From an uncultured Planctomycetales bacterium (GTDB lineage Bacteria > Omnitrophota > Gorgyraeia > Zapsychrales > JANLHA01), in assembly GCA_964450385.1 (NCBI GenBank), contig CAYVEC010000003.1, positions 4,104 through 68,103 on the forward strand: a stretch of DNA of 64,000 nt, in the 5' to 3' direction. The notes beneath the pieces were generated by a model, which saw nothing but the letters and a program-made list of their open reading frames with translations, searched no databases and was not told the origin of the DNA. Of the stretch, positions 191-64,000 are shown one piece after another. The number at the start of each line of letters is the position of its first letter. The first letter of the stretch is position 1. A program made the translations under genes and the position numbers.

Positions 191-353
191 TGACCTGCCG
201 TGCCTGGCTGGCGCCTGCATTTTTCGATCGTGCTATGAAGAAAGCGCTTGCCCATTTTGACTGTTTTACCCTTTTCTTCGTATTTTTATCAGATATACTT
301 TCACTATAAAAATGTAGAGGAATCGTCAAAGATTCCGGTTTTTTTAGAAAACA

Positions 354-3300
354 TGGCAAAAAAAACCTCAAAATTCGTCTCCCTTCTTGTACTCGTCTTT
401 TTTTTGACAAGCACGATCATGCCGCCGTCGTTATCGGCACAGGGGGTGGGCCTCTCTGGGGCCCTGCCCGCACCCGGGACCTTGGTCATGCCGACTCAGG
501 CCTTTGATCCTGTTCAATTGATGGGGATGCAGATCGATCTTGCCCGGCCGTTTCAGGTGAATTTTATCCTCGACACCGGTGACACGGGGCTCATGGGCGA
601 CCCGCTTAAAGACGAGGTCACACGGATCGCGCGCTATTTTTTGGCGAGCCTCGCGCTCCCGGAGAAAGACCTCTGGGTCAACCTTTCTCCGTATGAGAAA
701 GAACGGATCATTCCCGAGGATTTCGGGCTGACTGAAATGGGGCGCGATGTCCTGGCTCAGGATTATGTCTTGAAGCAGCTCACCTCGTCGCTCCTTCATC
801 CTGACCACGCGACGGGAAAGGATTTTTGGCAAAGGATCCGTGAACGCGCGGCGCGCGAGTTCGGCGCCTCGAACATTTCGGTGGAGACCCTTCATAAAAT
901 CTGGATCGTTCCGGAAAAGGCGGAGGTCTTCGTGAACGGCAGCACCGCCCTCCTCGGCGAGGTGCGGCTGAAGGTCCTGCTTGAGGAGGATTATTGGGCG
1001 CAGAGCGAGCGCGCGTCCTCGAGTCTAGCGGCACCGGAGGGGGGTTCGGGCCTGAATGCCCTTCAGACCCAGATTCTGCGTGACGTCGTGGTCCCGGAGG
1101 TCGCGCGCGAGGTGAACGAAGGGGAGCTCTTTGCCACGCTCCGTCAGGTCTATCGCGCGATGGTCCTCGCGGTGTGGTATAAAAACACCCTGACCGAGAG
1201 CATGCTCATCCAGCGCTATGCCGACAGCGGCCGGATCGACGGGGTTGACCTCGATGACCCGGCTGAGAAAGAAAAGATCTACGCCGAGTATCTCGCGGCG
1301 TTTAAAAAAGGGGTGTTTAATTTTATCCGGGAGGATACGGAGCCCCTGACCCAGCAGGTGATCCCGAGAAAATATTTCTCCGGCGGGGTTGATAACGCGA
1401 TGATCGCTCAGGCGATTCAGGTCAAAGAAGGCCCGATCCCGTTAGAGAAGAGGAATGGAATTTTTGGCCGCATCGGCCGGGCCGGGGCAGGGGTTGTCTT
1501 GGCTGCCCTGGCGCTGACAGCTTCCGGGACCGTTCATTCAGCTGAGGCCCCTTCACGAGGGGTCATCGAGATTACTGCTGGTTCCCCGGAACAAGGCCTC
1601 ATATCAAAGGAGGCCTTTAGGAAAATTTTGGAGAAGAGGGGGGCCTTTTGGTTTGATGATGTTCGATTGGTTCTGAACAATGAAAATCTGTCCCCTGCAA
1701 TGATTCGGCCATATTGGGATATGTTTTTAAAGATGACAAGCAATTTGAAGGGGATGACAAATGATGAGCGGGCGGGTATTGTCTCGGTTCTTCACGATTC
1801 CTTCCGGCTTTTCGGGTATACAGGCGCGATCGAGCGATCAGGGGGGCAGCTTATTCCTTTTTCCGAACAGGTTTTTGGCCGGTTCTTTCAAACTTCGTCG
1901 AGTGATGGCCTAACGACGTTGTATCGTCTTGATGAGATTGACCCGCCCACGCGTGTCGCCTATGTGAAATGGGCGTCATGGGCCGTTCAACAGCGCAGGC
2001 CCGCTGGTGTCAGCGTTCCTGCTGATGTGGCCGAGGTCCTCGTTTCATTCCGCGGGTTTTATGGGCTTAAGAAGGACTTGGGGCCGAAACCATTTCAGGC
2101 CTTTTTCAATCAGGTCATTGCGGAACACCCTATCATTGCTTTAAAAGGCCTGCTGCAAGTCAAGGCCGGCAGTCCCGATTGGCTAGAATATTGGCCGCCG
2201 ATGATGAGCGCCTTGGGTAAGACCATGCGACAGATGCCATTCCAGGATGTCCGTGCGGTGAATGATGCGGTCGTGAAAATGATTTCGGATGCAGGAGGAT
2301 ATCAACAGGCGAGGCGGCTCCTTGGTAAACGATGGGTCGACTTTATGCGAAAGTTTGTTGTTGCCTCTGCAGACAGCCTGACGTCTTCACGGGCCTTGTT
2401 GGACATTGAGAGAGAGACGAGTTTTAATTATTTGCGGGCCCTTTCGTCTGTTGTTCCTTCGGATCACGAGGACTGGGAATTGGTGATGAATGATGTGTTT
2501 ACTCATGCAGCGGCTCTGTTGGGTCAGGCTCAGGGATCAGGGAGGACCGATCAGCGGCGGCACGCGTCGGCGATGGTCTATGCCGGGATGCTTCTTGGGG
2601 GGTATGACGGTATGGAGGAGTTTTTGGCTAAACAAGGCGTCTTTATGCGCGGGCCCTTGCTTGAATTTTTGGTTGCTGAGTTAGACAAGGAAGTTCAGAT
2701 CGCCCTTAATCAGGGAGCTTCGCTTGGTGTTGTGAATGAACGGCTTTCTCCTAACATGAATGCATTGATCCGGATGCTATTCTGGTATCGTTCTCTTGAT
2801 ACGGATGACGGGGAGGCCTATGCGCGTGTGATGATAGCGAAGTTACGCCGCCTCATCGGGTATTCGGGCACGGCGGAGCAGCTGTTGGCACGGCTCGATG
2901 CGAAAATTTTGATGGCGCATCTCGCTGATTTCGCGAATGGGGCGATTCATTTAGATCATGTGATTCGTGTTCTGGATCATCCACTTTTTCGTCAAGAGAC
3001 AGCGGACATGGACCCGGCGCACCGGTTTGTGGTGGCACGGATGATCGAGGTGACCCTTGAGCGGGTCGATGCGCAAATGACGGATGAGAATATCGGCATA
3101 CTTGCCCCGCTTGTGATTCAATCATGGTATGAATTCGAGGGCCGTCCTATTCTGACAGAGGGCCAGACTGTTGTGCTGGTTTATGGGGATGATAAGAAGA
3201 CTTTCGGTGATGATCTTTTTACGATTCGTGAATTGGCCAAAGATTTTCATTTGAGGCTCATCGAACTCGGACCTGAAAAGGACAAATCCGAGGTTGAAAG

Positions 3301-4108
3301 GGTTCTGCGCGACTCGAGGGTTTCAGCCGCAGTATTTATTGGTCATGGCAACCAATATCGAGATAATAGGGGGATCCCTCATACCGTGTTTGTCCGTCGA
3401 TCAACATCGCCGTCATTGGGTGTCTCACGAGACATAGGGGGCCAGGAAATTATTACGGATGAGGAGGCGGGAGCATGGATTAAAGGGAAGTCGCTCCTTG
3501 TCACAACATCATGTTACGGTGCCGATTTTTTTCGTTATGTATCCGGTGCTGTTGTAGTCGGGGATGCAGGCCGAGGCAATGTTGCGATTGGACGCTCACA
3601 TGTTTTAAAATTGTTTTTAGAGGGGGACAAGCAAGGTGGCAAGATCAGGGGGGGGGCGTTATACAACTTTGCTGATGCCCCAGAGGCTTCATTCCCATTT
3701 ATAAGTATCCCCGAGAAGCGCGGAACGGTTGAGGGAATATTCAAGCGGCTCAAATTCAAGCCAGGAAAATCAAAAAAGTCTATTGAGCCGCCGACGAATT
3801 TATACGGAGTTGTTCCGATTATTAATGATGCCGGTGATTCGTCTCGGATGTATGCCGGTCGTTCGAGCAGCGGCAATCGTGACACAGCCATGATCGCTTC
3901 GGCCTCAACTGCCAGCCCCGGCAATGATCCGGTCGGCGGTATTGACCTTAATCCCGTTAACATGGATCTTATCATCAACGGGACACTCGCTTTTCCTGAG
4001 GTGTATTTAGGAGAATCGGTTCGTTTGCCCGATGATTTCAGCGGCCTGACCCCGCAGGTTCTCTTTATGGTGCCGGTTGTGTCGGGCACCCCTGCCCAGA
4101 ATCCTTAA
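354..4108 (+). CDS. Very large secreted multidomain protein (~1251 aa) of unknown function. It has an N-terminal signal peptide, an internal hydrophobic segment (~aa 400) and a C-terminal caspase-like (clan CD) His/Cys module.
   Basis: The ORF track gives 248..4108; I moved the start to ATG 354 (MAKKTSKFVSLLVLVFFLTSTIMPPSLSAQG = signal peptide) because upstream codons are AT3-rich. The motifs VVLVYG / AAVFIGHGNQY / SLLVTTSCYGADF match a caspase-fold dyad pattern. Its N-terminus is paralogous to the partial CDS at 63660. Confidence 0.6.
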
Positions 4109-7384: not shown

Positions 7385-10300
7385 ATGTCACATCCATTCG
7401 TTCATCTTCATGTTCATACCGAATATAGTCTGTTAGACGGCGCCTGCCGTGTGAGCGATCTGGCCGAGAAGGCCCGCGCCATGAATATGCCGGCGGTCGC
7501 GATGACTGATCACGGCAATATCTTCGGCACGGTTGATTTCTACAAGGAGATGCGGCGGGCCGGGGTCAAGCCGATCATCGGGATCGAGACCTATGTGGCC
7601 AAGACCAACCGTTTTGACAAGTCAGGCAAACAGGCTGGGCACAGCCATCTTGTTTTGCTCTGCCGTGATCATGACGGGTACCGCAATCTGGTCAAACTCG
7701 CCTCCGCGGGATATCTTGAGGGATTTTATTATAAGCCCCGCATCGATAAGGAGCTCCTCGCCCGTCACGCGGGCGGCCTCATCGCGACCTCGGCGTGCCT
7801 GAAGGGTGAAATCGCCCATCAGTTCAAGTCCGGGCATGAGGAGGCCGCGTATCAGGAGGCCGATGACATGGTCCAGATCTTCGGCAAGGGAAATTTTTAT
7901 CTCGAGCTTATGGATCATGGGATCCCGGAGCAGAAATATGTTAATGAAGGACTGCTTAAGATGTCCAAGACCCTGGGGATCCCGCTCGTCGCGACGAATG
8001 ATGTCCATTATCTCGAGCATGATCAATGGCGGGCCCATGACGCGATGCTCTGCATTCAGACCCAGAGTTTTTTGAGCGATCAGAACCGGATGCGCATGGC
8101 GAGCGACCAGTTCTATTTTAAATCCCCCGACGAGATGGCGCGTCTCTTCGCCTGGGCCCCAGAGGCCCTGACGAACACGGTGGCGATCGCGGAACGCTGT
8201 TCTCTCGAATTCGATTTCGGCCGCTACTATCTGCCGAGTTTTGAGCCGCCTAACGGCAAGACCCAGGAAGCGTATTTACGGGAATTGTGCCGTGAGGGCG
8301 CGGCCCGCCGGTACGGGACATTGTCGCCGGAGTTGGCCGCGCGTCTTGAGGGAGAGCTCCGGGTCATCGAGGAGATGGGGTTTGTGGCGTATTTTTTGAT
8401 CGTCTGGGATTTTGTGCATTATGCCAAAAGCCAGGGCATCCCGGTGGGCCCGGGCCGTGGATCGGCGGCCGGGAGCATTGTCTCGTATGCCCTCGGAATC
8501 ACGGCTCTCGACCCATTGAAATATGGACTGCTCTTTGAACGATTTCTCAACCCTGACCGGAAGGGGATGCCGGACATTGATATCGATTTTTGTTTCGACC
8601 GGAGGCCCGAGGTCATTGAGTATGTGACGCGCAAGTACGGCGAAGAGAATGTCGCTCAGATCATCACCTTCGGAAAAATGAAGGCGCGCGCCGCGGTGCG
8701 TGACGTCGGCCGTGTCATGGGGGTGGCCTATGATGAGGTCGACCGGATCGCGAAGGCGATCCCGCCGGACCTCGGGATGACGATCGAGAAGGCCCTGGAG
8801 GTCGAGCCGGAACTCGTTAAGATCTGCCAGGAAAACAGCACGGCCAAAGAGATTATTGAGACGGCGCGGGTTCTCGAGGGCCTGAACCGGCACGCCTCGA
8901 TCCACGCCGCGGGCGTGGTCATCGCGGACCGGCCGCTCACGGAATATGTCCCGTTATATAAAACCGCTGATGGACAGATCACGACCGGATACACCATGGA
9001 CGGGATCGCCCAGATGGGGTTGCTCAAGATGGATTTTCTCGGCCTTCGCACGCTGACCGTGATCTCGAAGGCCCTCGCGTGGGTGAAGGAGACCCGAGGG
9101 GTGACCCTTGACATCTCAACCGTGGCCCTTGATGACCCCGCGACGTTTCAGCTCTTTTGTGAGGCCAAGACCGCAGGCGTCTTCCAGCTGGAAAGCAGCG
9201 GGATGCGGGACCTCCTCCGGCGGAGCCGGCCGAACCGTTTTGAGGACCTTATTTCGGTCCTTGCCTTGTATCGTCCCGGGCCCATGGGGAGCGGGATGCT
9301 CGATGATTACATCACGCGCAAACGGGGTGAGGCCGCGGTTGAATACCTTCACCCGAAACTCGAAGGGATTCTTAAAGAGACCTTTGGGATGATCGTGTAT
9401 CAGGAGCAGGTCATGCAGACTGCTAGTCTTTTGGCGGGGTTCAGCATGGCCCAGGCGGATAATCTCCGGCGCGCGATGAGTAAGAAGAAGACCGAGGATA
9501 TGCTCAAGATGCGCGAGGCCTTTGTCTCGGGGTGTAAGGCGTCAAGCGCTATCGAGGAAGGCGAGGCGAACCGGCTCTTTGATTTGATCGATTATTTTTC
9601 TGGCTATGGTTTTAATAAGAGTCATTCGGCCGCTTATGCCATGGTCTCGTATCAGACCGCGTATCTGAAGGCGAATTATCCGGTCGAATTCATGTGTGCC
9701 TTGCTCACCTGCGAGCGCGATAACACGGAGAAGGTGGTTGAGTATGTTAAGGAGTGCGAGTTCCTGGGGATCGCGGTGCTCCCGCCGAACGTGAATGAGA
9801 GCAATCTGGAATTTAGCGTGGTGGACAACAAGCGGATCCGGTTCGGTCTGCTCGCGGTGAAAAATATCGGGGCCTCGGCCATCGAATCGATCGTCGCGGA
9901 CCGTCAGATCCATGGCCCGTTTGCCTCGATCTTTGACCTTTGCCAGCGGGTCGACCTTCGGCTCGTCAACCGCAAGGTCCTTGAAAGCCTGATCAAATGC
10001 GGGGCCCTTGATTGTTTCGGGACCTTTCGCTCCCAGATGATGGCTGTTCTTGACAATGCACTTGAGATCGGGGGGAGCCGGCAGCGGGAAAAGGCAGCGG
10101 GTCAATTGTCCCTTTTTGATCTGGGCATGGCCGAGACCGGGTTTTCGAGTAGGACCGAGGTCCTGCCTGACCTGCCGGATTGGCCCCAGACCCAGCGGCT
10201 CGCGTATGAAAAAGAGGTCTTGGGTTTTTATGTCTCGGGTCACCCGCTTGAACAATATCGTTTTGAGATGCGGAAGTTCGCGAATTGTTCAACGCAGAGT

Positions 10301-10816
10301 CTGCTCCGGCTCGGAGAAGGGGCAGGGGCCAAGATGATCGCCCTCATCACCGGGATCAAGCTCACGGCAACGCGGCGGACAGGGGAACGGATGGCTATCT
10401 TAACGGTTGAGGATATGAACACTCAGACCGAGGCCGTGATCTTTCCCGCTGTCTATCAGAAGGTGGCGGATAAATTGCAGGTTGGACAGGTCGTTATCCT
10501 CATGGGTAAGGTGAGCCTCCGAGAGGGGGCGGCGAATATTCTCTGTGATGACGTCCGGCCGGTCGCCGAGATCTATGAGACGATCCGCGCGGTGCGGGTG
10601 AACATGGTCGGCATGGATGCCGAGGGGTTAAAGAGGTTTAAAAATAAGATCGCGCAGTTCCCTGGCGCGGTTCCGGTATATCTTCAGCTCGACACGAAAA
10701 AATTTAAGAGTGTTCAGGTGGTTGTGGGCAAGGATCTTTATGTTCATCCGAACGAGATGCTCCTCAATGACATCAAAGAGATGGTCGGCGAGGACAATTT
10801 TGCCTTGACGATTTGA
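7385..10816 (+). CDS. dnaE: DNA polymerase III alpha subunit
   Basis: An N-terminal PHP domain (HLHVHTEYSLLDG), the polymerase core and an OB-fold, 1143 aa. Confidence 0.95.
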   Translation: MSHPFVHLHVHTEYSLLDGACRVSDLAEKARAMNMPAVAMTDHGNIFGTVDFYKEMRRAGVKPIIGIETYVAKTNRFDKSGKQAGHSHLVLLCRDHDGYRNLVKLASAGYLEGFYYKPRIDKELLARHAGGLIATSACLKGEIAHQFKSGHEEAAYQEADDMVQIFGKGNFYLELMDHGIPEQKYVNEGLLKMSKTLGIPLVATNDVHYLEHDQWRAHDAMLCIQTQSFLSDQNRMRMASDQFYFKSPDEMARLFAWAPEALTNTVAIAERCSLEFDFGRYYLPSFEPPNGKTQEAYLRELCREGAARRYGTLSPELAARLEGELRVIEEMGFVAYFLIVWDFVHYAKSQGIPVGPGRGSAAGSIVSYALGITALDPLKYGLLFERFLNPDRKGMPDIDIDFCFDRRPEVIEYVTRKYGEENVAQIITFGKMKARAAVRDVGRVMGVAYDEVDRIAKAIPPDLGMTIEKALEVEPELVKICQENSTAKEIIETARVLEGLNRHASIHAAGVVIADRPLTEYVPLYKTADGQITTGYTMDGIAQMGLLKMDFLGLRTLTVISKALAWVKETRGVTLDISTVALDDPATFQLFCEAKTAGVFQLESSGMRDLLRRSRPNRFEDLISVLALYRPGPMGSGMLDDYITRKRGEAAVEYLHPKLEGILKETFGMIVYQEQVMQTASLLAGFSMAQADNLRRAMSKKKTEDMLKMREAFVSGCKASSAIEEGEANRLFDLIDYFSGYGFNKSHSAAYAMVSYQTAYLKANYPVEFMCALLTCERDNTEKVVEYVKECEFLGIAVLPPNVNESNLEFSVVDNKRIRFGLLAVKNIGASAIESIVADRQIHGPFASIFDLCQRVDLRLVNRKVLESLIKCGALDCFGTFRSQMMAVLDNALEIGGSRQREKAAGQLSLFDLGMAETGFSSRTEVLPDLPDWPQTQRLAYEKEVLGFYVSGHPLEQYRFEMRKFANCSTQSLLRLGEGAGAKMIALITGIKLTATRRTGERMAILTVEDMNTQTEAVIFPAVYQKVADKLQVGQVVILMGKVSLREGAANILCDDVRPVAEIYETIRAVRVNMVGMDAEGLKRFKNKIAQFPGAVPVYLQLDTKKFKSVQVVVGKDLYVHPNEMLLNDIKEMVGEDNFALTI

Positions 10817-10871
10817 TTTTTGGGCGTCATTTTTTCATTTTTTTGATGATTTTGTTCATGCAAAAAAACCT

Positions 10872-10906
10872 TGACACTGTAAACCCTTGTTGATACTATG
10901 TTTACG
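10872..10906 (+). promoter_or_regulatory. Near-consensus sigma-70 promoter upstream of the IHF/HU gene
   Basis: TTGACA, a 17-nt spacer, then TACTAT. Confidence 0.45.
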
Positions 10907-10925
10907 TCAAGGGAGGTGACAACAC

Positions 10926-11198
10926 ATGACCAAAAAAGATATCGTGCTTAAGATTACGGATATGACCGGTATTAAGCAGGTCGATGTGAAGACCATCGTG
11001 CAGGCCACATTCGATGTGATTGTGGAGAGTCTCATCCGCAATGAGAAGGTGGAATTGCGCAATTTTGGGGTCTTTAAGATCAAAGAGCGCAAGGCCCGCT
11101 TCGGCAGGAATCCGAGGACCGGCGATAGTGTCCCTGTCCCTCCGCGCAAGGTCGTCATTTTCAAGCCGGGGCTTGAAATGAAAGATAAAATTAAATAG
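10926..11198 (+). CDS. HU/IHF family DNA-binding protein (IHF-like)
   Basis: 90 aa with the NFGVFKIKERKARFGRNPRTGDSV...FKPG motif of the IHF/HU arm. Confidence 0.9.
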   Translation: MTKKDIVLKITDMTGIKQVDVKTIVQATFDVIVESLIRNEKVELRNFGVFKIKERKARFGRNPRTGDSVPVPPRKVVIFKPGLEMKDKIK

Positions 11199-11303
11199 CC
11201 ATGACGTGTTGAAGATTCATATGAATCAATACGTTATGGTTTGTACGTATCATCTATTGAAGGCGGAGGACGTATTCTCCGCCTTTCAGATTAAAAGAAA
11301 ACC

Positions 11304-12608
11304 ATGAAAAAGATCCACACAGCGCCGAGAGGGACTGCTGACATTTTGCCGGCCGATGCCGCGCTTTGGCAGACCGTGGAGTCGCGTGCGCGCGAGCGGC
11401 TGGCATCGTATGGGTATCGAGAGATCCGAACCCCGCTTTTTGAGGAGACGGAGCTGTTTGCCCGTTCGGTCGGGCAGACCTCGGACATTGTTCAGAAACA
11501 GATGCTCAATCTTGCGGCCCAGCATGAGGACGAGGGAGCGGAAGATCCGACCCGGGTTGCCCTGTCCCTGCGGCCGGAGGCGACCGCCGCCGTGGTGCGC
11601 GCGTATATCGAGCATCACCTCGATCGGCAGGAGCGGTTATCAAAATTATTTTATGTCGGCCCGATGTTTCGCGGCGAGCGGCCTCAAAAGGGCCGGCTTC
11701 GTCAGTTTCATCAGATCGGTGTTGAGGCCCTGGGACCCGAGACCGCCTCTCCCTTTTTGGATGCTGAGGTCATCGCCTTAAGTGTCGATATCTTAAAGTC
11801 CCTCTCGGTCCAAGGGTTTGAACTCCGGATCAATACGCTCGGAACCGCGGAGGATAAAGAACGGTTTTCTGGATTTCTACGCGGGGCCCTGGGGTCTCAG
11901 CTCACGGCGTTTTGTCCGGATTGTCAGAGCCGGTTTTCACGAAATGTCTTTCGCATCCTTGATTGCAAAAATCGCGACTGTCAGCGCCAGATCGACCGGA
12001 TCGAGCTTGATCGCAGCTATTTAACAGAGGGGAGCCGCCAGTATTTTGATGCTGTGAAGGCCGCCTTGGATTCGCTGGGGATCGGCTATCGTGAAGATCC
12101 GCGTCTCGTGAGAGGGTTGGATTATTATACCCATACGGTCTTTGAGGTCTCGTGCGCCTCCTTGGGGAGTCAGGATGCGGTGGGCGCGGGCGGCCGCTAT
12201 AATGGCTTGGTCGAGCAGCTCGGCGGCCCGAAGGCGGATGCCGTGGGGTTTGCCCTGGGGATCGAGCGGATCCTTTTGGCGTGCGACGGGGATCAATTGA
12301 CCTCTGAGAGCGGGATCGATGTTTTTGTGGTTGTGCTGGACGAGGGGTTGATGCCGCGGGCCTTTGAGATGCTCGATCATCTTCGGCGGGCCGGGATCCG
12401 CGCGGATATGGGGTTTTCTGCGGGGTCGCTCAAAAGTCAGATGCGGCAGGCGGATAAGAATAAGGCGCGTTTTGTCTGGATGCTCGGCAGCCAGGAGGCC
12501 TCTGAAGGCGTGGTGACCGTTAAGAATATGGAGACATCATCGCAGGAGAGGGTCAGGATCGATGACCTCGGGTCGTGGATCACGGCGTTTCACCAGAACG
12601 GGCGGTGA
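11304..12608 (+). CDS. hisS: Histidine--tRNA ligase
   Basis: Class II aaRS motifs plus the HisRS-specific regions (LRPEATAAVVRAY, GGGRYNGLVEQLGG) and a C-terminal anticodon-binding domain. Confidence 0.95.
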   Translation: MKKIHTAPRGTADILPADAALWQTVESRARERLASYGYREIRTPLFEETELFARSVGQTSDIVQKQMLNLAAQHEDEGAEDPTRVALSLRPEATAAVVRAYIEHHLDRQERLSKLFYVGPMFRGERPQKGRLRQFHQIGVEALGPETASPFLDAEVIALSVDILKSLSVQGFELRINTLGTAEDKERFSGFLRGALGSQLTAFCPDCQSRFSRNVFRILDCKNRDCQRQIDRIELDRSYLTEGSRQYFDAVKAALDSLGIGYREDPRLVRGLDYYTHTVFEVSCASLGSQDAVGAGGRYNGLVEQLGGPKADAVGFALGIERILLACDGDQLTSESGIDVFVVVLDEGLMPRAFEMLDHLRRAGIRADMGFSAGSLKSQMRQADKNKARFVWMLGSQEASEGVVTVKNMETSSQERVRIDDLGSWITAFHQNGR

Positions 12609-12667
12609 TCGGTTCGGAAAATCCGGACGCTGTCCGGGGGGATTAACGTTTTGTTGAAGGAGTGGGG

Positions 12668-14077
12668 ATGTTACGAACACACACATGCGGGGAACTTCGT
12701 CCGGAGCATCAGGGGCGCCGGGTGACATTATGCGGGTGGGTTCACCGCCGGCGGGACCATGGGAAGTTGATCTTCATTGATGTCCGCGACCGGTACGGCG
12801 TGACCCAGATCGTTTTTGTGCCATCGGTCTCGCCCGAGGCCCATGGCGTGGCGCAGACCCTGGGGTTGGAGTATGTGATCCGGGTGGAGGGGGATGTGGC
12901 CGCCCGATCTGCGAAGAACGTGAATAAAGAGATTCCGACCGGAGAGGTCGAAGTCTGCGCGACCGGACTCGAGATCCTCAACACCTCCCGGACTCCGGTC
13001 TTTGAGGTGGATGATGAAGGGGAGGTCGGCGAGGAATTGCGTCTCACCTATCGGTACCTTGACCTCCGCCGGAAAAAAGTAGCGAGCGCTCTGGCCCTGC
13101 GGCATCGGATGTGCGCCTGTATCCATCGGGTCCTTGACCAGGAGGGGTTCCTTTCGGTGGAGACGCCGGTCCTGACGAAATCGACGCCTGAGGGTGCCCG
13201 TGATTTTTTGGTGCCGTCACGCCTCAGCCCGGGAAGTTTTTTTGCCCTGCCTCAATCCCCGCAGCTGTTCAAGCAGATGCTCATGGTCTCGGGGTTTGAC
13301 CGGTATTATCAGATTGTGAAATGCTTTCGGGATGAGGACCTCCGCGCCGATCGGCAGCCGGAATTCACCCAGCTCGATATGGAAATGTCATTCGTTCAGG
13401 AGGAGGACATCTTCGCGCTCACCGAGCGGCTTTTTCAGACGATCTTTAAAGAGGTGAAGGGGATCGATCTGCCGATCCCTTTCCCGCGGATGACCCATGC
13501 CGACGCCATGGCGCGCTACCAGAGCGACAAGCCGGACATCCGAAAGGACAAAAACGACAAGAATGAATTTGCCTTTCTTTGGGTTGTGGATTTTCCTTTA
13601 TTTAAATATAATACAGAAGAAAGTCGATGGGAGAGTGAGCATCATCCCTTTACGTCGCTTCACCCGGATGATCGCGGGCTCTTCGATCAGGGGGATTATG
13701 GTCGGGTCCGCTCGAGGTCTTATGATCTCGTGCTCAATGGAAGCGAGATCGGCAGCGGCTCGGTTCGAATCCATCAGCGGGAGCTGCAGAAAAAGATTTT
13801 TGACATTATCGGGATCGATGAGGGAGAGGCCGAGCGGCGGTTTGGGTTCTTGCTGCGGGCCTTCGAATACGGGGCGCCTCCGCATGCCGGGGTCGCCTAC
13901 GGGATCGATCGGTTGACGGCGATGCTCACCGGGGTTGAGTCGATCCGCGATACGATCGCCTTTCCGAAGACGCAGAAGGGAAGCTGTTTGGTCACTGACG
14001 CTCCGTCGGAGGTGGATGAACCGCAGCTGCGGGAGTTGGGATTAATGGCACTGAAAAAAGGAGATTCTGATGCCTAA
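12668..14077 (+). CDS. aspS: Aspartate--tRNA ligase of bacterial type that lacks the GAD insertion domain
   Basis: An N-terminal OB anticodon domain, motif 2 FRDEDLRADRQPEFTQLDMEMSF and motif 3 GSGSVRIH. The ...SDKPDIRKD / FAFLWVVDFPLF junction is contiguous where the E. coli enzyme carries its ~130-aa GAD domain. The ORF-track GTG at 12662 is an alternative start. Confidence 0.9.
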   Translation: MLRTHTCGELRPEHQGRRVTLCGWVHRRRDHGKLIFIDVRDRYGVTQIVFVPSVSPEAHGVAQTLGLEYVIRVEGDVAARSAKNVNKEIPTGEVEVCATGLEILNTSRTPVFEVDDEGEVGEELRLTYRYLDLRRKKVASALALRHRMCACIHRVLDQEGFLSVETPVLTKSTPEGARDFLVPSRLSPGSFFALPQSPQLFKQMLMVSGFDRYYQIVKCFRDEDLRADRQPEFTQLDMEMSFVQEEDIFALTERLFQTIFKEVKGIDLPIPFPRMTHADAMARYQSDKPDIRKDKNDKNEFAFLWVVDFPLFKYNTEESRWESEHHPFTSLHPDDRGLFDQGDYGRVRSRSYDLVLNGSEIGSGSVRIHQRELQKKIFDIIGIDEGEAERRFGFLLRAFEYGAPPHAGVAYGIDRLTAMLTGVESIRDTIAFPKTQKGSCLVTDAPSEVDEPQLRELGLMALKKGDSDA

Positions 14078-14675
14078 AAGAATAGTATTGGGAGTTGTGT
14101 GTCTTGTTGGGGTGTCGTTGGTGGCCGGGTGCGCGTCGACCCGCGCGGCGGCGCCGAAAGAGGAGGGCGGGAAACTTGAGCTGCGCGCCTACAGTGAAGA
14201 CCGTCCGCGTGTGGACCAGGAGTTGTCCGGGAATCGCGGGTATCTGATGGGCACGCCGAAGCCCGAGGAAACGACCGATCGTCGGCCGACACGCCGGGTC
14301 TATGTTGTCGAATTGACGAAGAGTGTTCCGGTGCCGCAGGAGGTTGAGAATTTTAAGATCGAGCCCTTGCCTAAGAGTGAGCCGGTGAATCTTCCACCCG
14401 CCCGTCCGGTTGAAGAACCCGCGTGGCGTCAGCCGGTTCAGATCCCTTCTTTTGATGTCAGCGATACGGCTGATGTCGGCGATGCGGCCTCAGGTTTGGG
14501 GCGAGAGGATGAGGTGTATGTGGTTCAGGAGGGAGACACCCTGCAGAAGATCTCGAAGAAATATTATGACACGTATAAAAAGTGGACGGATATCTTTGAG
14601 GCCAACAAAGAGGTTCTCCGGGATAATCCCAATTGGATCAAGCCGGGGATGCGTTTGACCATTCCGATGAACTAG
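14070..14675 (+). CDS. LysM-domain lipoprotein
   Basis: Lipobox LVAGC after a signal peptide and a C-terminal LysM (YVVQEGDTLQKISKKYY...). The start overlaps the aspS stop (ATGA). Confidence 0.8.
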   Translation: MPKRIVLGVVCLVGVSLVAGCASTRAAAPKEEGGKLELRAYSEDRPRVDQELSGNRGYLMGTPKPEETTDRRPTRRVYVVELTKSVPVPQEVENFKIEPLPKSEPVNLPPARPVEEPAWRQPVQIPSFDVSDTADVGDAASGLGREDEVYVVQEGDTLQKISKKYYDTYKKWTDIFEANKEVLRDNPNWIKPGMRLTIPMN

Positions 14676-14737
14676 AACGGATCAACATCTGAAACCGCCA
14701 GAGGCCTTGCCGATGCGAGGGCCTTGGATAGGGGATC

Positions 14738-15688
14738 ATGGAAAAAATCATTTTTTTGAATAGTCTGCAGGATGAGCAGGTCCTTTTCGGCAAGTATGAT
14801 CAGAACCTCAAGCTGATTGAGGTCGAGATGGACGTCAAGATGATGCGCGTCGAGGAGGGGCTAAAGGTGATTGGCCCTGATGACGCGGTCGAAAAGGTCG
14901 GCGAGATGATCGAGTATCTCCTTAGCATCGTCGCTGACGGACGCGAAATTAAAAAGCGCGATGTCATTTATGCGATCCAGCTCATCCGGTCGGATGCGGG
15001 GATCGATTTTAAAAAGCTCGCGAAGAAGCGCATTCAGCTGCCGATCTCGGGTGGGGTCATTACTCCTAAGACGCGCGGGCAGATCGATTATGTCGAGGCG
15101 ATCCGAAGTTATGACATTGTTTTTGGGATCGGGCCGGCTGGGACCGGGAAGACCTATCTTGCGATCGCGATGGCCGTGAACGCCCTCAAAAAGGGTATCG
15201 TGCGTCGGATCATTTTGACCCGTCCCGCGATTGAGGCCGGAGAGAGCCTCGGGTTTCTGCCCGGGGACATGGTGGACAAGGTCTCGCCGTATCTGAGGCC
15301 TATGTATGACGCCTTGTATGAGATGATGGATCCGGAAAAGGTGGAACAGTATACCGAGCAGGGGATCATTGAGATCGCGCCGCTCGCCTTTATGCGAGGC
15401 CGGACCCTGAACGAGGCGTTTATCATTTTGGATGAGGCTCAGAATTCAACGGCGTATCAGATGAAAATGTTTTTGACGCGGCTGGGGTTTGATTCCAAGG
15501 CCGTGATCACCGGCGACCTCACCCAGAGCGACCTGCCCAAGGGCAGTGTGAATGGGTTGGCCGAGGCTCAGCGGATCTTGGGGCACATTGAGGATATTCG
15601 GTTTGTGACCCTGACTGGCGCCGACGTTGTTCGGCATGAGCTGGTTCAAAAGATCATCGAGGCCTATGCCCAGGTCGATAAGCACTAA
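14738..15688 (+). CDS. phoH: PhoH-like ATPase (PhoH/YbeZ)
   Basis: Walker A GPAGTGKTYLA and PhoH-family conservation. It has the conserved context with the 7TM-HD and ybeY genes. Confidence 0.9.
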   Translation: MEKIIFLNSLQDEQVLFGKYDQNLKLIEVEMDVKMMRVEEGLKVIGPDDAVEKVGEMIEYLLSIVADGREIKKRDVIYAIQLIRSDAGIDFKKLAKKRIQLPISGGVITPKTRGQIDYVEAIRSYDIVFGIGPAGTGKTYLAIAMAVNALKKGIVRRIILTRPAIEAGESLGFLPGDMVDKVSPYLRPMYDALYEMMDPEKVEQYTEQGIIEIAPLAFMRGRTLNEAFIILDEAQNSTAYQMKMFLTRLGFDSKAVITGDLTQSDLPKGSVNGLAEAQRILGHIEDIRFVTLTGADVVRHELVQKIIEAYAQVDKH

Positions 15689-15697
15689 AGGAACACG

Positions 15698-17074
15698 ATG
15701 AGGAACATCCTAAAGGCACCGATCTCATTGAAACATTTCCTGATAGGGGCCATGGTGATCGGGGTCGTGGCGCTCTTCTGTTACGCCTCGGGGTATTCGT
15801 ATATTTTAGCCTTTCTTGTGCTGCTCTTTAGTATGCACCTGTTTTTTATCGAGCGGGCCTCAGGCCGTCAGTATCTGCATCTTGGTCTGCTCTTGACCCT
15901 TGGCTTATTCATGGCGCATGCGGTCATCGTTTATGGTGGGTGGCCTCCCCGGTATATTCCGGTTGCCAGCCTTGCCATGCTTACGATGCTCCTCTTCAAC
16001 GACCTCCAGATTATGTTCATTATGTCGGTCCTCGCAAGCGTGGCCGTGACCCTGGGCGCGGGCGGCGGGTTGGAGATGGCCTTGATTTTTTTTGTGGGAT
16101 CCGTGACCGCGGCCTACAGCGTGCGGGACGCGCGGAGCCGAGGGACGATGATCAATGCCGGGTTTTATGTGGCCTGTATGCAGGTCTTTGCCGCGGTGCT
16201 TTTGGCGCTCGGCACGACGAATATCGCGTCGCGGGAATTTCTTAATAATGTCGTCCGGCCGCTTGCGGTGAACGGATTTCTTGCCGCGTTCATCACGCTC
16301 GCAACCTTAAAGATCTTTGAATCGTTGTTCGGAGTCGTGACGAATTTTAGTCTGCTCGAGCTCTCAGACTTCAATCAGCCCCTGCTTAAAAAGATGATCC
16401 TTGAGGCGCCGGGGACGTACCATCACAGCCTGGTCGTGAGTAATCTCGCTGAGGCAGCGGCCGAGGCGGTCGGGGCAAACGGGCTTCTTACCCGGGTGGG
16501 GGCTTATTATCATGATATTGGTAAGATCGAGAAGCCTGAGTATTTTACAGAGAACCAGCTCCTCGATGCGAATAAACATGACAATCTCGAGGCCTCGGTC
16601 AGCCGGCTCGTCATTATCAGCCACGTCAAGCAGGGCCTTGAGACCGCGAAGAAATATAAACTGAATCCGGTGATCGCGGATTTTATTCCCCAGCACCACG
16701 GGACGAGCCTCACCTACTTTTTTTATCAGAAGGCGCTCGAGGCCGCTGAGGACCCGGCTACCGTGAAACCCGAGGATTTTCGCTATCCTGGACCGAAGCC
16801 TCAATCGCGCGAGACCGCGATCGTGATGCTCGCGGATTCGGTCGAGGCCGCGATCCGAAGTCTTGAGGAACCGACCCCCAAAAGGATCGAGGAGCTTGTT
16901 CGGAAGATCATCAATAATAAATTTATCGACGGGCAGCTTGATGAATGTAATCTCACCCTTCGGGACATTGACAAGATCGCCCTGACTTTCACCCGTGCCC
17001 TGAGCGCGATGTATCACACCCGGGTGCGGTATCCCGAACGGAATGGCGGGACAGGTGCCAAGGCCGATGATTAA
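15698..17074 (+). CDS. 7TM-HD membrane phosphohydrolase (PgpH/YqfF family)
   Basis: Multiple N-terminal TM helices followed by an HD domain (HHSLVVSNLAEAAA...YYHDIGK). Confidence 0.85.
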   Translation: MRNILKAPISLKHFLIGAMVIGVVALFCYASGYSYILAFLVLLFSMHLFFIERASGRQYLHLGLLLTLGLFMAHAVIVYGGWPPRYIPVASLAMLTMLLFNDLQIMFIMSVLASVAVTLGAGGGLEMALIFFVGSVTAAYSVRDARSRGTMINAGFYVACMQVFAAVLLALGTTNIASREFLNNVVRPLAVNGFLAAFITLATLKIFESLFGVVTNFSLLELSDFNQPLLKKMILEAPGTYHHSLVVSNLAEAAAEAVGANGLLTRVGAYYHDIGKIEKPEYFTENQLLDANKHDNLEASVSRLVIISHVKQGLETAKKYKLNPVIADFIPQHHGTSLTYFFYQKALEAAEDPATVKPEDFRYPGPKPQSRETAIVMLADSVEAAIRSLEEPTPKRIEELVRKIINNKFIDGQLDECNLTLRDIDKIALTFTRALSAMYHTRVRYPERNGGTGAKADD

Positions 17075-32743: not shown

Positions 32744-32817
32744 GCGCCTGTAGCTCAGATGGATAGAGCGCGGCTCTCCTAAGGCCGGCGTCGGAGGTTC
32801 GAATCCCCCCAGGCGCA
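32744..32817 (+). tRNA. tRNA-Arg (anticodon CCT)
   Basis: I folded the cloverleaf manually: acceptor GCGCCTG/CAGGCGC, D-arm GCTC..GAGC, anticodon loop CTCCTAA, T-arm GGAGG-TTCGAAT-CCCCC (one A.C mismatch), discriminator A, no encoded CCA. Confidence 0.8.
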
Positions 32818-33070: not shown

Positions 33071-34414
33071 ATGAAAAAAGTGTTATTAGCCGTACTCGCG
33101 ATCGCGTTGATGGCTGCGCCGGCGTTTGCTAGCGTGCAGAACATCAAGGTGAGCGGGGACATCGAGACAACATACCTGAATCGTGAGAACTTTGATTTGG
33201 GCGGCTCAACGGCCACCTATGATCAGAGCGTCTTCTTGATGCAGACACGCCTGCGCGTTGATTCCGATCTGACCGACAAGGTTGCGGCCACGATCGCCCT
33301 GATCAACGAGCGCGAATGGGGTGCCAGCACCACGACGACAGGTGTCGACCTGAATCTTGCCTATGTGACGATGAAAGAGATGCTCTATTCTCCGCTCACC
33401 GTCACGCTCGGGCGCCAGAATTTTGCCTTCGGGAATTCGTTTGTGATCGATTCCGCAGGGACAAACAATTCGGCTCCGGCTGATTCGGGCTTGAACAGTA
33501 TCGCCGAGGATTTAACCAAGCAGACGGCTCAGGATGCAATCCGCCTGACGTTTGATTACAATCCGTTGACGATCGATGTGGTTTATTCCAAGATCACTCA
33601 GGGTGTTGTTTCCGGGACGATCGAGGATGATGACACAGACCTCATCGGGATGAACGCCAGCTATCAGTTCGATGATGAGAAGGCGACGCTTGTCGAGGGG
33701 TATTTATGGGTGAAGAATGACAAGCCGGCAGCTCTGGGAGCGGGCGATGATAACGCCAAGACCGACAGAGTCTATATGCCCGGTGTGCGTTCCAGCATGA
33801 ACATCTTGGATGGATGGAATCTTCAGGGTGAGTTTGCCTACCAGACCGGCACGAAGTATCTTGGCGCTGCTGGTGAGCATGCCAGCCGCAAGGCCTATGC
33901 AGCTCAGGTGATCTCGAGCCATGCCTTGAAGTTCGAGAAGACTGCAAAGTATAAGCCGGTGTTCGCGATGTCCTACACGATGTATTCAGGGGACACGAAT
34001 GGGGCTCCTGGTGATGAGCGCTATAGCGCATGGGATCCCATGTATGAGAATCAGGCAGGTGGCAAGATCTACAACACCTTGTTCAATGCGAGCAACTGCC
34101 ATATCGTTGGCGCGAGCCTTTCAATGGTTCCGGCGGAGGACGTGATGGCTCAGCTCTATTTTGATCATCTGTTTTTGGATAAGGAAGTTGGGGCCTTTGC
34201 CCTCAATCAGCCTGACGGATCGACCTCGACACCGACTCAGAAAGGTAACGAAAGCCTCGGCAACGAGGTTGGGATGGTCGTGACGTATGACTACACCGAG
34301 GATGTTCAGCTTGGCGCTCGCGCGGGCTGGTTCTTCCCCGGGTCACGTTATGGCAATGACAAGAAGAATGATTCTGCCTCGCAGGTTTTGTTGAACGCGA
34401 AGGTGTCATTCTAA
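33071..34414 (+). CDS. Outer-membrane beta-barrel protein, porin-like
   Basis: Signal peptide MKKVLLAVLAIALMAAPAFA, alternating amphipathic strands and a C-terminal Phe (..AKVSF). It has a ~190-nt 5'UTR and a strong terminator after it. Confidence 0.7.
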   Translation: MKKVLLAVLAIALMAAPAFASVQNIKVSGDIETTYLNRENFDLGGSTATYDQSVFLMQTRLRVDSDLTDKVAATIALINEREWGASTTTTGVDLNLAYVTMKEMLYSPLTVTLGRQNFAFGNSFVIDSAGTNNSAPADSGLNSIAEDLTKQTAQDAIRLTFDYNPLTIDVVYSKITQGVVSGTIEDDDTDLIGMNASYQFDDEKATLVEGYLWVKNDKPAALGAGDDNAKTDRVYMPGVRSSMNILDGWNLQGEFAYQTGTKYLGAAGEHASRKAYAAQVISSHALKFEKTAKYKPVFAMSYTMYSGDTNGAPGDERYSAWDPMYENQAGGKIYNTLFNASNCHIVGASLSMVPAEDVMAQLYFDHLFLDKEVGAFALNQPDGSTSTPTQKGNESLGNEVGMVVTYDYTEDVQLGARAGWFFPGSRYGNDKKNDSASQVLLNAKVSF

Positions 34415-49034: not shown

Positions 49035-49069
49035 CGACGTTTTTCGGGGCACGACAGAAGGCATAGGTG

Positions 49070-63535: not shown

Positions 63536-63659
63536 AATTTTAATATTTTTAATTATTTTTTTATGATTTTTCGGCCTTCCTTTGTTTTATAAAATAAAAA
63601 ATGGCATACTTATTGTGTTATAAAGGACTCTTTTCTATATAAAGATTGGGAGGGTTCGA

Positions 63660-64000
63660 TGAGCACGCTTCATTTTAAGCAGACTCGCTTGTGTCGTATT
63701 CTTTCGGGTTTTCTTATCGGGATTTTCAGCGTTAGCATGGTCCTGCCCCTGGACATTGCCTCAGCGCAGGTGATCCAGCTCCCGATGCCGGGCACCATTA
63801 TTTCAACAAGCGCAGAATTCTTACCGGCCTATCTTTTAGGGATCCGGGTGAATCCCCAGAACCCGTTTGAATTGAATTTTATCGTGGATAACGGAGATTC
63901 GCGGTTGACGGGCGAGGCGCTTAAAAGCGAGTCCGAGAAACTGATCCGGTATTTTATGGCCGCGCTCACCGTGCCTGAGGAAGAGATCTGGGTCAACTTG
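63660..64000 (+). CDS. 5' part of a second giant secreted protein, paralogous to CDS 354..4108 (3' partial)
   Basis: RBS GGGAGGG. Its signal peptide and block ...SAQVIQLPMPGTII..PQNPFELNFIVDNGDSRLTGEALKSESEKLIRYFMAALTVPEEEIWVNL align with residues 25-110 of the first protein. Confidence 0.7.

Follow-up and report, generated by a model that had tools for sequence, protein, structure and literature searches.

What kind of protein is encoded at the left edge of this window (the whole stretch of DNA analyzed, 64,000 nt), and why does a relative of it start at the right edge? The original prediction named both open reading frames correctly, with each start one base off (354 and 63660 for the true 353 and 63659). 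The window protein opens with MAKKTSKFVSLLVLVFFLTSTIMPPSLSA followed by QG, which is a canonical Sec signal by its sequence, and aa 3 to 22 were modeled as a helix by AF2. The second gene starts at ATG 63659 behind the Shine-Dalgarno sequence GGGAGGG and runs for 114 codons before the window ends. The proposed homology of the two N-termini was borne out by BLASTP, with 40 of 109 positions identical (37%, E 1e-23) between aa 4 to 111 of the window protein and aa 10 to 114 of the second member. Most of this match lies beyond the signal peptides (LP.PGT...PF..NFI.D.GD...RYF.A.L..PE..WVNL). The best local alignment of the two DNA sequences covered 130 nt at 76% identity, so the two genes are diverged paralogs and no assembly duplicate. 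Only these two family copies were detected in the window by tblastn, and the genes between them are housekeeping genes (IMPDH-like, GuaA, DnaE, PPDK, NrdD, and PFOR). A word-based search with the 114 aa of the second member gave no match, nor did a wobble-tolerant DNA pattern in the metagenome collection. The features of both genes are listed in Table 1.

Table 1. Features of the window protein and of the second family member in the 64-kb window
Feature	Position	Strand	Evidence or remark
Open reading frame of the window protein	353..4108	+	ATG 353, stop 4106-4108, 1251 aa
Sec-type signal peptide, aa 1-30	353..442	+	Sequence; predicted cut after SLSA or AQG
N-cap, aa 31-345, ends ...IPRKYFSGG	443..1387	+	Thousands of proteins 43-55% identical
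Junction motif 1, D-N-A-M, aa 347-350	1391..1402	+	Motif; low pLDDT, as linker
Signal-peptide-like cargo start, M350...KRNGIFGRIGR-AGAGVVLAALALTASGTV-HSAEA, then P after the cut	1400..1546	+	Second hydrophobic segment
Orphan cargo, aa 396-1176, mostly helical region then His/Cys domain	1538..3880	+	Database searches
His/Cys alpha/beta domain, aa 842-1107, putative clan-CD-like peptidase	2876..3673	+	Alignment A2, AF2
Junction motif 2, D-T-A-M, aa 1177-1180, 14 aa before the C-module	3881..3892	+	Motif
C-cap, aa 1195-1251, GGIDLNP...GLTPQVLFMVPV...	3935..4105	+	Alignment with homologs
Second family member, signal peptide (aa 1-36, ...DIASA, then Q after the cut) and first 78 aa of the N-cap	63659..64000	+	BLASTP, sequence

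The only region common to the window protein and the second paralog is a module of about 310 aa behind the Sec signal peptide, termed the N-cap, which the partial paralog matches through WVNL. The thousands of relatives of the window protein, 43 to 55% identical to it, likewise cover the N-cap part of the query only. In an alignment of the window protein (aa 1 to 345) with 69 members, to which it was 43 to 50% identical, 47 columns were invariant, among them S112, K141, and K182. The invariant motifs read LP.PG, WVNLSPYE, TEMGRDLLAQDY.LKQ, FNK.W..P, and PRKYFSGG, and the window protein carries every feature that defines the family. The N-terminal signal of the members ends in A-x-A, followed by (D/E)F.LPAPG. 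A mixed fold of beta-hairpins and helices was modeled for the N-cap by AF2 (pLDDT 74, pTM 0.71). The N-cap had no sequence match in Pfam, NCBIfam, or PDB and no fold match in PDB or BFVD.

The N-module was found in more than 3,121 protein clusters, essentially all of Candidatus Omnitrophota, and species-representative genomes, all of them Omnitrophota-type MAGs, contained at least 587 loci that were confirmed. Members of this phylum are uncultured, globally distributed, ultra-small, and probably predatory or parasitic. A single MAG contributed up to 8 genes to the top 80 loci, and tandem arrays occurred. The shortest complete member with both N- and C-modules has 792 aa, and some ORFs are longer than 3,700 aa. 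A phage origin was rejected, as only 3 matching loci were found in 2.9 million viral contigs of IMG/VR and neither PHROGs nor PADLOC gave a match. No conserved neighbor gene for a protease or for secretion was detected, the best neighbor cluster occurring at 11 of the 80 loci.

A second constant element of about 60 aa, the C-cap, stands at the C-terminus of most full-length members, including the window protein. Of the 120 best homologs, 98 carry it, at a median length of 69 aa. It starts with GGIDL and contains G(F/L).P.(I/V/L)...P; the copy of the window protein, which aligned with 97 other C-modules, is divergent. Neither typical nor divergent copies matched NCBIfam or Pfam better than E 0.03, and no transmembrane-length hydrophobic stretch or basic tail was found in the C-cap. 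At the family loci, none of the 49 C-module-like ORF ends lay in a short, stand-alone ORF, and no protein with N- and C-modules without cargo was seen. By these sequence comparisons, the proteins with an N-cap and a C-cap are a very large, undescribed Omnitrophota family, defined by a head and a tail without known relatives.

The original prediction thus saw rightly that the two genes encode large proteins with export signals and are true diverged paralogs of such a family, and its view that no homolog could be named held in Pfam, NCBIfam, PADLOC, PHROGs, and PDB. It went too far in calling the window protein giant, since 1251 aa is about the family median, and in treating the pair as a local duplication bracketing core genes, since thousands of family members exist. 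Family-wide similarity is also limited to the N-module and the C-module, and the intervening parts are unrelated between members.

The cargo between the caps is hypervariable and holds one to many unrelated units per gene, such as glycolytic enzymes (including PGK and GAPDH), methyltransferases, MutS, kinases, glycosidases, membrane proteins, and orphans. It is drawn from all of the proteome: cytoplasmic enzymes that need cofactors and polytopic membrane proteins are among it, with radical-SAM/B12 domains, ComEC, and GT2 as examples. Some members carry effector-like cargo (Fic, RelA/SpoT, PLD, AvrB_AvrC, and peptidases), and signaling-type cargo is found in the family as well (histidine-kinase ATPase, receiver, and nucleotide-signaling domains). 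In the window protein, the cargo of about 780 aa matched only itself among 5.8 billion protein clusters and had no match in PDB or in Pfam up to E 1. An exhaustive HMMER search yielded 4 weak matches, all within aa ~842 to 1001. Two hydrophobic segments are present in the window protein; the second (aa ~376 to 393) is flanked by positive charges on its N-terminal side and by A-E-A on its C-terminal side, and the stretch from M350 has the n-h-c organization of a signal peptide.

The idea of a secreted protease, put forward in the original prediction, bears on the His/Cys domain of this cargo. In alignment A2, G-H998-G and C1054 were invariant in 8 sequences; each of the two residues follows a predicted beta-strand, with His before Cys as in clan CD. 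Clan CD peptidases carry their catalytic His (usually in H-G) and Cys at the C-terminal ends of adjacent beta-strands. The AF2 model of the domain (pLDDT 67.8) had weak Foldseek matches to a caspase-6 zymogen (E 0.011) and to separase (TMq 0.34), many flavodoxin-like folds matched no worse, and no Pfam or PDB profile match to a clan CD family was found. The domain, which is absent from most family members, may be a caspase-like peptidase. The protease guess may therefore be partly right for the window protein, because of the invariant His and Cys and the weak caspase/separase-like fold similarity.

Both junctions of the window protein, behind the N-cap and ahead of the C-cap, read D-x-A-M-I-A-(Q/S)-A. 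Across the family cargo, D.AM was observed 210 times versus 11.7 expected (18x) and N.AM was enriched 4x. The variants E.AM, D.GM, D.SM, and D.A[LIVA] remained near background at about 0.5 to 1.2x, and three positions of the motif are therefore specific. The density of D.AM per 1000 aa was 1.52 in the family versus 0.08 in the other proteins of the window. Members without D.AM carry SSP[ILVFM] instead (0.92 versus 0.05 per 1000 aa), which was the top result of an unbiased 4-mer scan. SSP[ILV] takes the positions of D.AM, directly before the N-termini of receiver domains and before the C-cap, and the type of motif follows the genome and the N-cap clade. D.AM was absent from the cargo of 31 of 117 members, and 34 of 189 had neither motif. 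The junction is [D/N]-x-A-M in the lineage of the window protein and S-S-P-[ILV] in another.

The junction motifs fall between Pfam domains, in slightly more flexible sequence, and homology blocks spanned them in only 2 of 42 cases. As cassette boundaries, they gave a modest signal (block ends 15.5% versus 5.9%, block starts 11.4% versus 8.6%). One-third of the units between motifs are shorter than 40 aa, because the motifs occur in tandem. Internal translation starts at the junction Met were rejected. The junction Asp and Ala codons vary synonymously like background, with conservation at the amino acid level only, and sequences resembling Shine-Dalgarno sites accompanied 9.4% of junction Met, below the 12% of control Met and compared to 52% of real gene starts in the window. 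An n-h-c signal peptide followed the junction Met in 23 of 302 cases versus 68 of 4125 other cargo Met (odds ratio 4.9, P 2e-8), and in three members a canonical twin-arginine signal closely follows the N-cap. One member (L059) carries a unit with a Tat signal and GH26, then DRAM, and then an acetyl-CoA-type GNAT unit without a signal; in another (P0038), the GAPDH unit starts 9 aa past a junction Met. Stretches between junctions resemble whole proteins that bring their own targeting signals.

The family has a defined architecture and size, a restricted taxonomic distribution, and junction motifs between its units. To account for these properties, we tentatively favor, at somewhat less than even chances, capped modular genes that resemble polyproteins, whose chain would be separated into units at the junctions. 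Judged from sequence, the motifs would be the recognition sites at which the chain splits. The window gene would then yield the exported N-cap, an orphan of about 830 aa (aa 350 to 1179) with its own signal-peptide-like start and a His/Cys, possibly caspase-like, domain, and the small C-cap. The data lean towards a separation before or independently of export, because the units have the makeup of whole pre-proteins, with Sec or Tat signals of their own. As counter-points to the polyprotein reading, a simple polyprotein model leaves unexplained why the Sec-exported head and the tail are universal, and genes that were captured could have left the internal signal peptides behind as relics; at the family loci, no conserved neighbor was found as a candidate protease. 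The members lacking D.AM or both motifs, the short units between tandem motifs, and the modest cassette-boundary signal also count against it. We know of no precedent in bacteria for cytoplasmic cleavage of a chain whose N-terminus is being exported.

Alternatively, the whole chain may be exported by Sec, with the caps as modules for handling, secretion, or translocation and the cargo acting outside the cell or in prey, a possibility that is unlikely but keeps a sizable share of the probability. Its variants include recognition by a T2SS or pilus and insertion into the prey membrane, with cargo that stays intact or is cut extracellularly in the manner of MARTX or polymorphic toxins. The canonical cleavable signal in nearly all members, the 62% of full-length members without any further hydrophobic segment, and a conserved extreme C-terminus resembling a sorting domain fit such an exported effector, but internal Sec and Tat signals right after junctions would be purposeless in a chain already threading Sec. 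Similarly, the effector-like cargo of some members would suit it, whereas intact housekeeping enzymes, radical-SAM/B12 domains, ComEC, and GT2 would make poor secreted effectors. Omnitrophota have been proposed to be predators or parasites, with giant proteins predicted to be extracellular and located near secretion or pilus genes (West-Roberts et al. 2023, bioRxiv 10.1101/2023.11.21.568195; the long-protein catalogue, bioRxiv 10.64898/2026.06.07.730766; Seymour et al. 2023, PMC10066038), yet no secretion genes are conserved beside the genes of this family. The names returned by Foldseek for the N-cap, ClyA-type pore-forming toxins, point the same way but are nonsignificant (best E 0.29, TM ≤0.15).

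An uncleaved bitopic membrane protein, in which the N-cap would be a periplasmic, sensor-like domain between two helices and the cargo and C-cap a cytoplasmic output, is improbable. The second hydrophobic segment of the window protein right after its N-cap and the signaling-type cargo of the family speak for it. However, the first 110 aa behind the N-cap contain a hydrophobic segment in only 15 of 141 full-length members (11%), and the majority have none beyond the signal. The N-terminal segments moreover end in A-x-A cleavage sites, and the flanks of the second segment in the window protein have the polarity of a signal peptide, unlike an out-to-in anchor. A receptor-like topology as the family norm was rejected on the 11% figure. 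We give very little credit to the original reading of a diversifying surface or adhesion family with the window pair as a recent duplication. Export signal, large size, and several paralogs agree with it, and other giant ORFs of Omnitrophota have been suggested to act as adhesins, but repeats and domains of the Ig, cadherin, discoidin, or dockerin type are absent from the window protein by Pfam, and the family cargo is mostly enzyme-like. The pair, at 37% identity versus 43 to 55% between the window protein and members in other genomes, is about as distant mutually as from those members, and the duplication is therefore ancient. That fused gene calls or chimeric assembly mimic long ORFs is hardly credible. 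The units begin with Met and sometimes have their own signals, like separate genes, but hundreds of assemblies, made independently in many studies, show the same architecture without interruption, D-x-A before the Met is conserved in frame at the protein level, and the junction Met lack ribosome-binding sites.

Taken further, the polyprotein reading would have Omnitrophota make cellular polyproteins at a large scale, split in or at the cytoplasm at lineage-specific junctions into units that are sorted separately; this wider claim is doubtful. Dozens of genes per genome would each encode one chain of an exported N-cap, any ordinary proteins, and a C-cap. Cuts would fall between Ala and Met of D-x-A-M or between Pro and the last residue of S-S-P-[ILV], and the released units would each go to the cytoplasm, Sec, Tat, or the membrane. 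The caps could be cis-acting separation machinery; one possibility is that the N-cap, via its invariant Ser112, Lys141, and Lys182, would be a Ser/Lys-type peptidase cutting after Ala. Conversion of the phylum's giant ORFs into working proteins might follow the same logic.

Should the junctions be cut, genome annotation would have to change, because many "hypothetical giant proteins" would turn out to be chains of ordinary enzymes; a new peptidase specificity would also be indicated, and with it a way of expressing genes that has so far been linked to viruses. Even with uncut junctions, the family ranks among the largest uncharacterized carrier-cargo architectures in bacteria. Three concrete handles result from the analysis: the head and tail that define the family, the precise and lineage-specific junction motif, and the resemblance of the units to whole proteins with targeting signals.

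Among known systems, the giant Omnitrophota ORFs, or archaeovorins, come from the same phylum. Their N-terminal regions "lack identifiable domains" and their processing points are stated to be unknown (bioRxiv 10.1101/2023.11.21.568195; bioRxiv 10.64898/2026.06.07.730766; PMC10066038). The long-protein catalogue (bioRxiv 10.64898/2026.06.07.730766) reports 176 complete Omnitrophota genomes. Archaeovorins share with the N-cap family a signal peptide and/or transmembrane segments in front of serial enzyme domains of the cytoplasmic type (glycolytic enzymes, PPDK, methyltransferases, HATPase, and GNAT), and differ in being defined by more than 10 to 30 kaa, many transmembrane helices, and SecA_DEAD, C39, or S8 domains. 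The window protein has 1251 aa, two hydrophobic segments, and no SecA_DEAD, C39, or S8 match in Pfam. The N-cap, the C-cap, and the D-x-A-M or SSP junctions were not described in the portions of the giant-ORF literature covered, and the motif strings were absent from the literature searched.

Mycobacterial PE/PPE proteins use the T7SS, have no Sec signal, and carry a small helical N-domain that serves export and is removable. They are likewise lineage-restricted and hyper-expanded, with a conserved N-domain and highly variable, in some cases enzymatic, C-terminal parts; they differ in having no conserved tail, no junction motif, and no homology to the N-cap family. T9SS cargo resembles the family in its Sec signal and a small conserved C-terminal domain (~80 aa) after unrelated cargo, and polymorphic toxins including CdiA in a short motif (VENN-type) that demarcates swappable modules; in the N-cap family, the variable part is central instead of terminal. 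No TPS, Rhs, or Por_Secre_tail (TIGR04183 or Pfam CTD) model matched the window protein or the C-modules in Pfam and NCBIfam, and to our knowledge T9SS is not known in Omnitrophota. The N-terminal TPS domain of two-partner secretion and the C-terminal beta-barrel translocator of autotransporters were also absent (no Pfam or NCBIfam match, a C-module of only ~60 aa), as was an exosortase- or sortase-type sorting signal, the C-module having no transmembrane helix with a basic tail.

MARTX and large clostridial toxins resemble the family in that conserved ends bracket a variable effector array, and an embedded clan-CD cysteine protease cuts between their modules; in the window protein, similarly, a His-then-Cys domain lies shortly before the C-cap. 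MARTX toxins use the T1SS, lack a Sec signal, and have glycine-rich A/B/C repeats at both ends and an InsP6-activated C80 protease that cuts after Leu. The window protein has a Sec signal, matched no repeat or RTX models, and gave no sequence or significant fold match to MARTX. Viral polyproteins are alike in encoding autonomous proteins in one ORF with a short motif of the P3-x-Ala/P1' type that varies by lineage; the Ser/Lys protease VP4 of birnaviruses, for example, cuts between (S/T)-x-A and (S/A). Unlike viral polyproteins, the N-cap family is cellular and chromosomal, has many paralogs per genome, and carries a universal head and tail.

The genes at the two edges of the window are diverged members of one family. 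The left-edge product, the window protein, and the partial right-edge product share 37% identity across 109 aa (BLASTP, E 1e-23), mostly downstream of both signal peptides, which bears out the N-terminal homology proposed in the original prediction. The best local DNA alignment of the two genes spans 130 nt at 76% identity; they are therefore diverged paralogs, as had been noted, and assembly duplication as the source of the pair is ruled out. The left-edge gene had been located correctly apart from its start, which was one base out (ATG at 353). No third copy was found within the 64-kb window. Between the two edge genes lie housekeeping genes of ordinary kinds, encoding IMPDH-like, GuaA, DnaE, PPDK, ADP-forming acyl-CoA synthetase, PAS histidine kinase, NrdD, PFOR, and spermidine-synthase-like membrane proteins. 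An alginate-export-type beta-barrel implies a diderm envelope. Essentially all gene-like ORFs from 1 to 64000 lie on the plus strand and GC skew is positive in 32/32 two-kb bins, so that cumulative skew climbs steadily; the window appears to lie wholly inside one replichore with extreme gene co-orientation.

Features of the window, the window protein and Tat-bearing family members
Feature	Position	Strand	Details
Left-edge CDS, window protein	ATG 353, stop 4106-4108	+	1251 aa
Right-edge CDS, second paralog	ATG 63659 to window end	+	114 codons; good Shine-Dalgarno sequence upstream
Uncharacterized large protein among "core" genes	20837-23173	+	778-aa ORF; no Pfam match at E up to 1e-8
tRNA gene	32744-32817	+	Rfam RF00005, 58.8 bits; only Rfam match in the window
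Alginate-export-type outer-membrane beta-barrel	33071-34414	+	
Histidine kinase	49067-52447	+	periplasmic phosphonate-binding-type domain and several PAS domains
Junction 1, window protein	aa 347-350		DNAM, after N-module
Junction 2, window protein	aa 1177-1180		DTAM, before C-module
Family ORF with internal Tat signal, genomic locus L059	2061-5861		SRRKFI
Family ORF with internal Tat signal, genomic locus L056	9959-13423		SRRRFL
Tat signal, homologous protein P0093	aa ~423		SRRSFL

A search of 5.8 billion protein clusters gave >3,121 significant matches to the window protein among 8,000 candidates scored. The best non-self matches (E about 1e-102 to 1e-109, 40-55% identity) cover only its first 25-37% and are proteins of 700-2,170 aa with unrelated Pfam domains downstream of the shared part. 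The conserved head comprises a Sec signal ending in A-x-A and an N-module of ~310 aa ending in ...IPRKYFSGG, with 47 invariant columns in the family alignment. Exported paralogs without a nameable homolog had been foreseen, and the N-module indeed matched nothing in Pfam, NCBIfam, PADLOC, PHROGs, or PDB sequences; the scale and nature of the family had been missed. For the AlphaFold model of the N-module (pLDDT 74, pTM 0.71), in which three predicted beta-hairpins alternate with long helices, Foldseek searches of PDB and BFVD gave nothing significant.

A conserved C-terminal module of ~60-70 aa (GGIDL.P... followed by DPA.L..LQNAPGF.PVIINI.P or by the variant ...LP....EGF.P.IINI.P) was present in 98 of the 120 best homologs, and a divergent copy forms aa 1195-1251 of the window protein. 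The C-module matched no known C-terminal sorting domain and was never found as a separate small ORF in family loci. The string GG[VI]D stands at both borders in all members (...YFSGG(V)D.AM and GGIDL..., aa 344-350 and 1195-1199 of the window protein) and may descend from an ancestral protein whose head and tail were contiguous; no family member lacking cargo, the stretch between the two modules, was found.

Where sources are named, nearly all are Candidatus Omnitrophota/Omnitrophica, and the few other labels are probably binning errors. Scanning one genome per species confirmed at least 587 family loci, all in Omnitrophota-type MAGs, with a single MAG contributing up to 8 genes to the top 80 loci and 14 loci carrying tandem arrays of two or three members. 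Proteins P0083, P0034, and P0103 and many loci were deposited as Phenylobacterium, Bathyarchaeia, or "uncultured Planctomycetales", probably from mis-binned or mislabelled Omnitrophota contigs. In Omnitrophota UBA10174 (DOGZ01000038.1, L061:1781-20141), three tandem family genes of 2251, 1119, and 2287 codons precede a PFOR fragment, at L061:20446, that shares 80% identity with the window PFOR; UBA10174 is the closest relative of the window organism among the loci seen, and the window therefore probably derives from an Omnitrophota genome.

The motif D-x-A-M marks the junctions between cargo units. It occurred 244 times between domains compared with 15.3 ± 3.3 in shuffles, and 210 times in cargo alone compared with 11.7 expected (18x). 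N-x-A-M was 4x enriched in cargo, and every other single-position variant tested there (E.AM, D.GM, D.SM, and D.AL/I/V/A) was at or below expectation. D-x-A-M reached a density of 1.52 per 1000 aa in the family versus 0.08 in the remaining 21 proteins of the window, and it occurred once in 7,219 aa of cargo-domain relatives from outside the family. Copies cluster no more than 70 aa past the N-module and no more than 30 aa ahead of the C-module, separate Pfam domains in each of the five multi-domain members inspected, and were spanned by homology blocks in just 2 of 42 cases. The window protein has exactly two, one on either side of its cargo, sharing the pattern D-x-A-M-I-A-(Q/S)-A. In 138 motifs from genomic loci, synonymous variation at the junction Asp and Ala codons was much like that in the rest of those genes, and Shine-Dalgarno-like sequence preceded 9.4% of junction Met, compared with 12% of other internal Met and 52% of presumed window gene starts. 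The constraint therefore acts at the protein level, and a DNA or translation signal is ruled out. Family ORFs at L001, L022, L014, L027, L028, and L003, which start at ~10001 and continue beyond the 10-kb flank covered, are longer than 3,650-3,750 aa and contain as many as 13 D-x-A-M motifs, so the family shades into the phylum's "long proteins".

D-x-A-M was absent from the cargo of 31 of 117 members, roughly a quarter. Members without [D/N]xAM carried S-S-P-[ILVFM] at 0.92 per 1000 aa versus 0.05 expected, and SSPV, SSPI, and ASSP headed an unbiased 4-mer enrichment scan of this group; the value of 0.05 in DxAM-rich members counts as absence. The SSP motif stands where D-x-A-M does: it immediately precedes receiver-domain N-termini (SSP-I-NKILLVDD) and lies a few residues upstream of GGI(D/N)L. 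Junction type tracks genome and N-module similarity, and 34 of 189 members have neither motif. Two exclusive, lineage-specific motifs at equivalent positions form the pattern that a co-evolving recognition site would give, and would not be expected from inherited linker sequence. In GCA_040960315.1, two adjacent members with HEAT and PGK cargo (L085:5475-9359 and 10001-15967) wholly lack D-x-A-M, their lineage being SSP-type or motif-less; they are separated by a MazE-like antitoxin gene pair, and mutL, mutS, and a secretin gene follow downstream.

Family cargo spans the whole proteome, including intact GAPDH, PGK, aldolase, PPDK, MutS, and DnaJ, as well as radical-SAM/B12 proteins, kinases, many methyltransferases, GT2, ComEC, glycosidases, Fic, and RelA/SpoT, and the units look autonomous. 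The homolog P0047 has a domain that Pfam assigns to AvrB_AvrC, a type III effector family. An n-h-c signal-peptide-like segment follows 23 of 302 junction Met versus 68 of 4,125 other cargo Met (odds ratio 4.9, p 2e-8), the window protein being among the 23 (M350...KRNGIFGRIGR-AGAGVVLAALALTASGTV-HSAEA|P). Canonical twin-arginine signals occur shortly downstream of the N-module in three members; L059 runs from the N-module through DHAM, Tat signal with GH26, DRAM, GNAT, and DEAM onward, the unit after Tat/GH26 being a GNAT acetyltransferase. Among 141 full-length members, just 11% carry a hydrophobic segment downstream of the N-module, and the cargo of 62% is free of such segments, which rules out a sensor-TM-output receptor as the family norm.

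The window protein from aa 396 to 1176 matched only itself in a word-based search of 5.8 billion protein clusters. Exhaustive HMMER against 1.84 billion representatives gave four weak relatives of the cargo, all confined to aa ~842-1001, and PDB and Pfam gave none. A domain at aa 842-1107, which recurs in three family members and in four proteins outside the family, contains G-H998-G and C1054 as invariant residues, each preceded by a beta-strand; His then Cys, each after a beta-strand, is typical of clan CD peptidases. A profile search of PDB with this domain was empty, and its model (pLDDT 67.8) gave only weak matches (caspase-6 zymogen, E 0.011; separase, TMq 0.34) that stand among many flavodoxin-like folds. 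The domain is thus a putative, unproven peptidase, and the protease role originally suggested survives in that form.

From the observed architecture, family size, taxonomic restriction, and motif statistics we infer, tentatively and at slightly less than an even chance, that the junctions are separation sites and the genes therefore polyprotein-like. The window gene would then yield three products: an exported N-cap (the N-module), an orphan protein of ~830 aa that bears a signal and possibly a cysteine-peptidase domain, and a small C-cap (the C-module). Separation would occur before or independently of export, as is favoured by the predicted internal Sec/Tat signals and by extracytoplasmic and cytoplasmic enzyme types within single ORFs. 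Export of the whole chain as a carrier-cargo effector of a predatory lifestyle, with extracellular processing or none, accounts more naturally for the universal signal, head, and tail and agrees with published views of giant Omnitrophota proteins; it is the main rival, which we rate as less likely than separation. Against both readings alike stand two negative results, in that no protease was identified and no conserved partner gene was found beside family genes, and also the members described above that lack D-x-A-M or both motifs. S112, K141, and K182, invariant in the N-cap in the family alignment, may supply a candidate Ser/Lys dyad like those that cleave after Ala.

The portions available of papers on giant or long Omnitrophota proteins (bioRxiv 10.1101/2023.11.21.568195; bioRxiv 10.64898/2026.06.07.730766; PMC10066038) describe enzyme-rich, membrane-associated ORFs whose N-terminal regions lack identifiable domains and whose cleavage points are stated to be unknown; no description of the N-cap, C-cap, or junction was found in those portions, and the motif strings were not found in the literature searched. 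The junction motifs open the processing of Omnitrophota long proteins to direct testing, hence the high interest of the family. Its logic resembles that of MARTX toxins, polymorphic toxins, PE/PPE proteins, and viral polyproteins, but every membership test run for these placed it outside them. The kind is a known one, modular multi-domain exported proteins or polyproteins, built here from components without known relatives.
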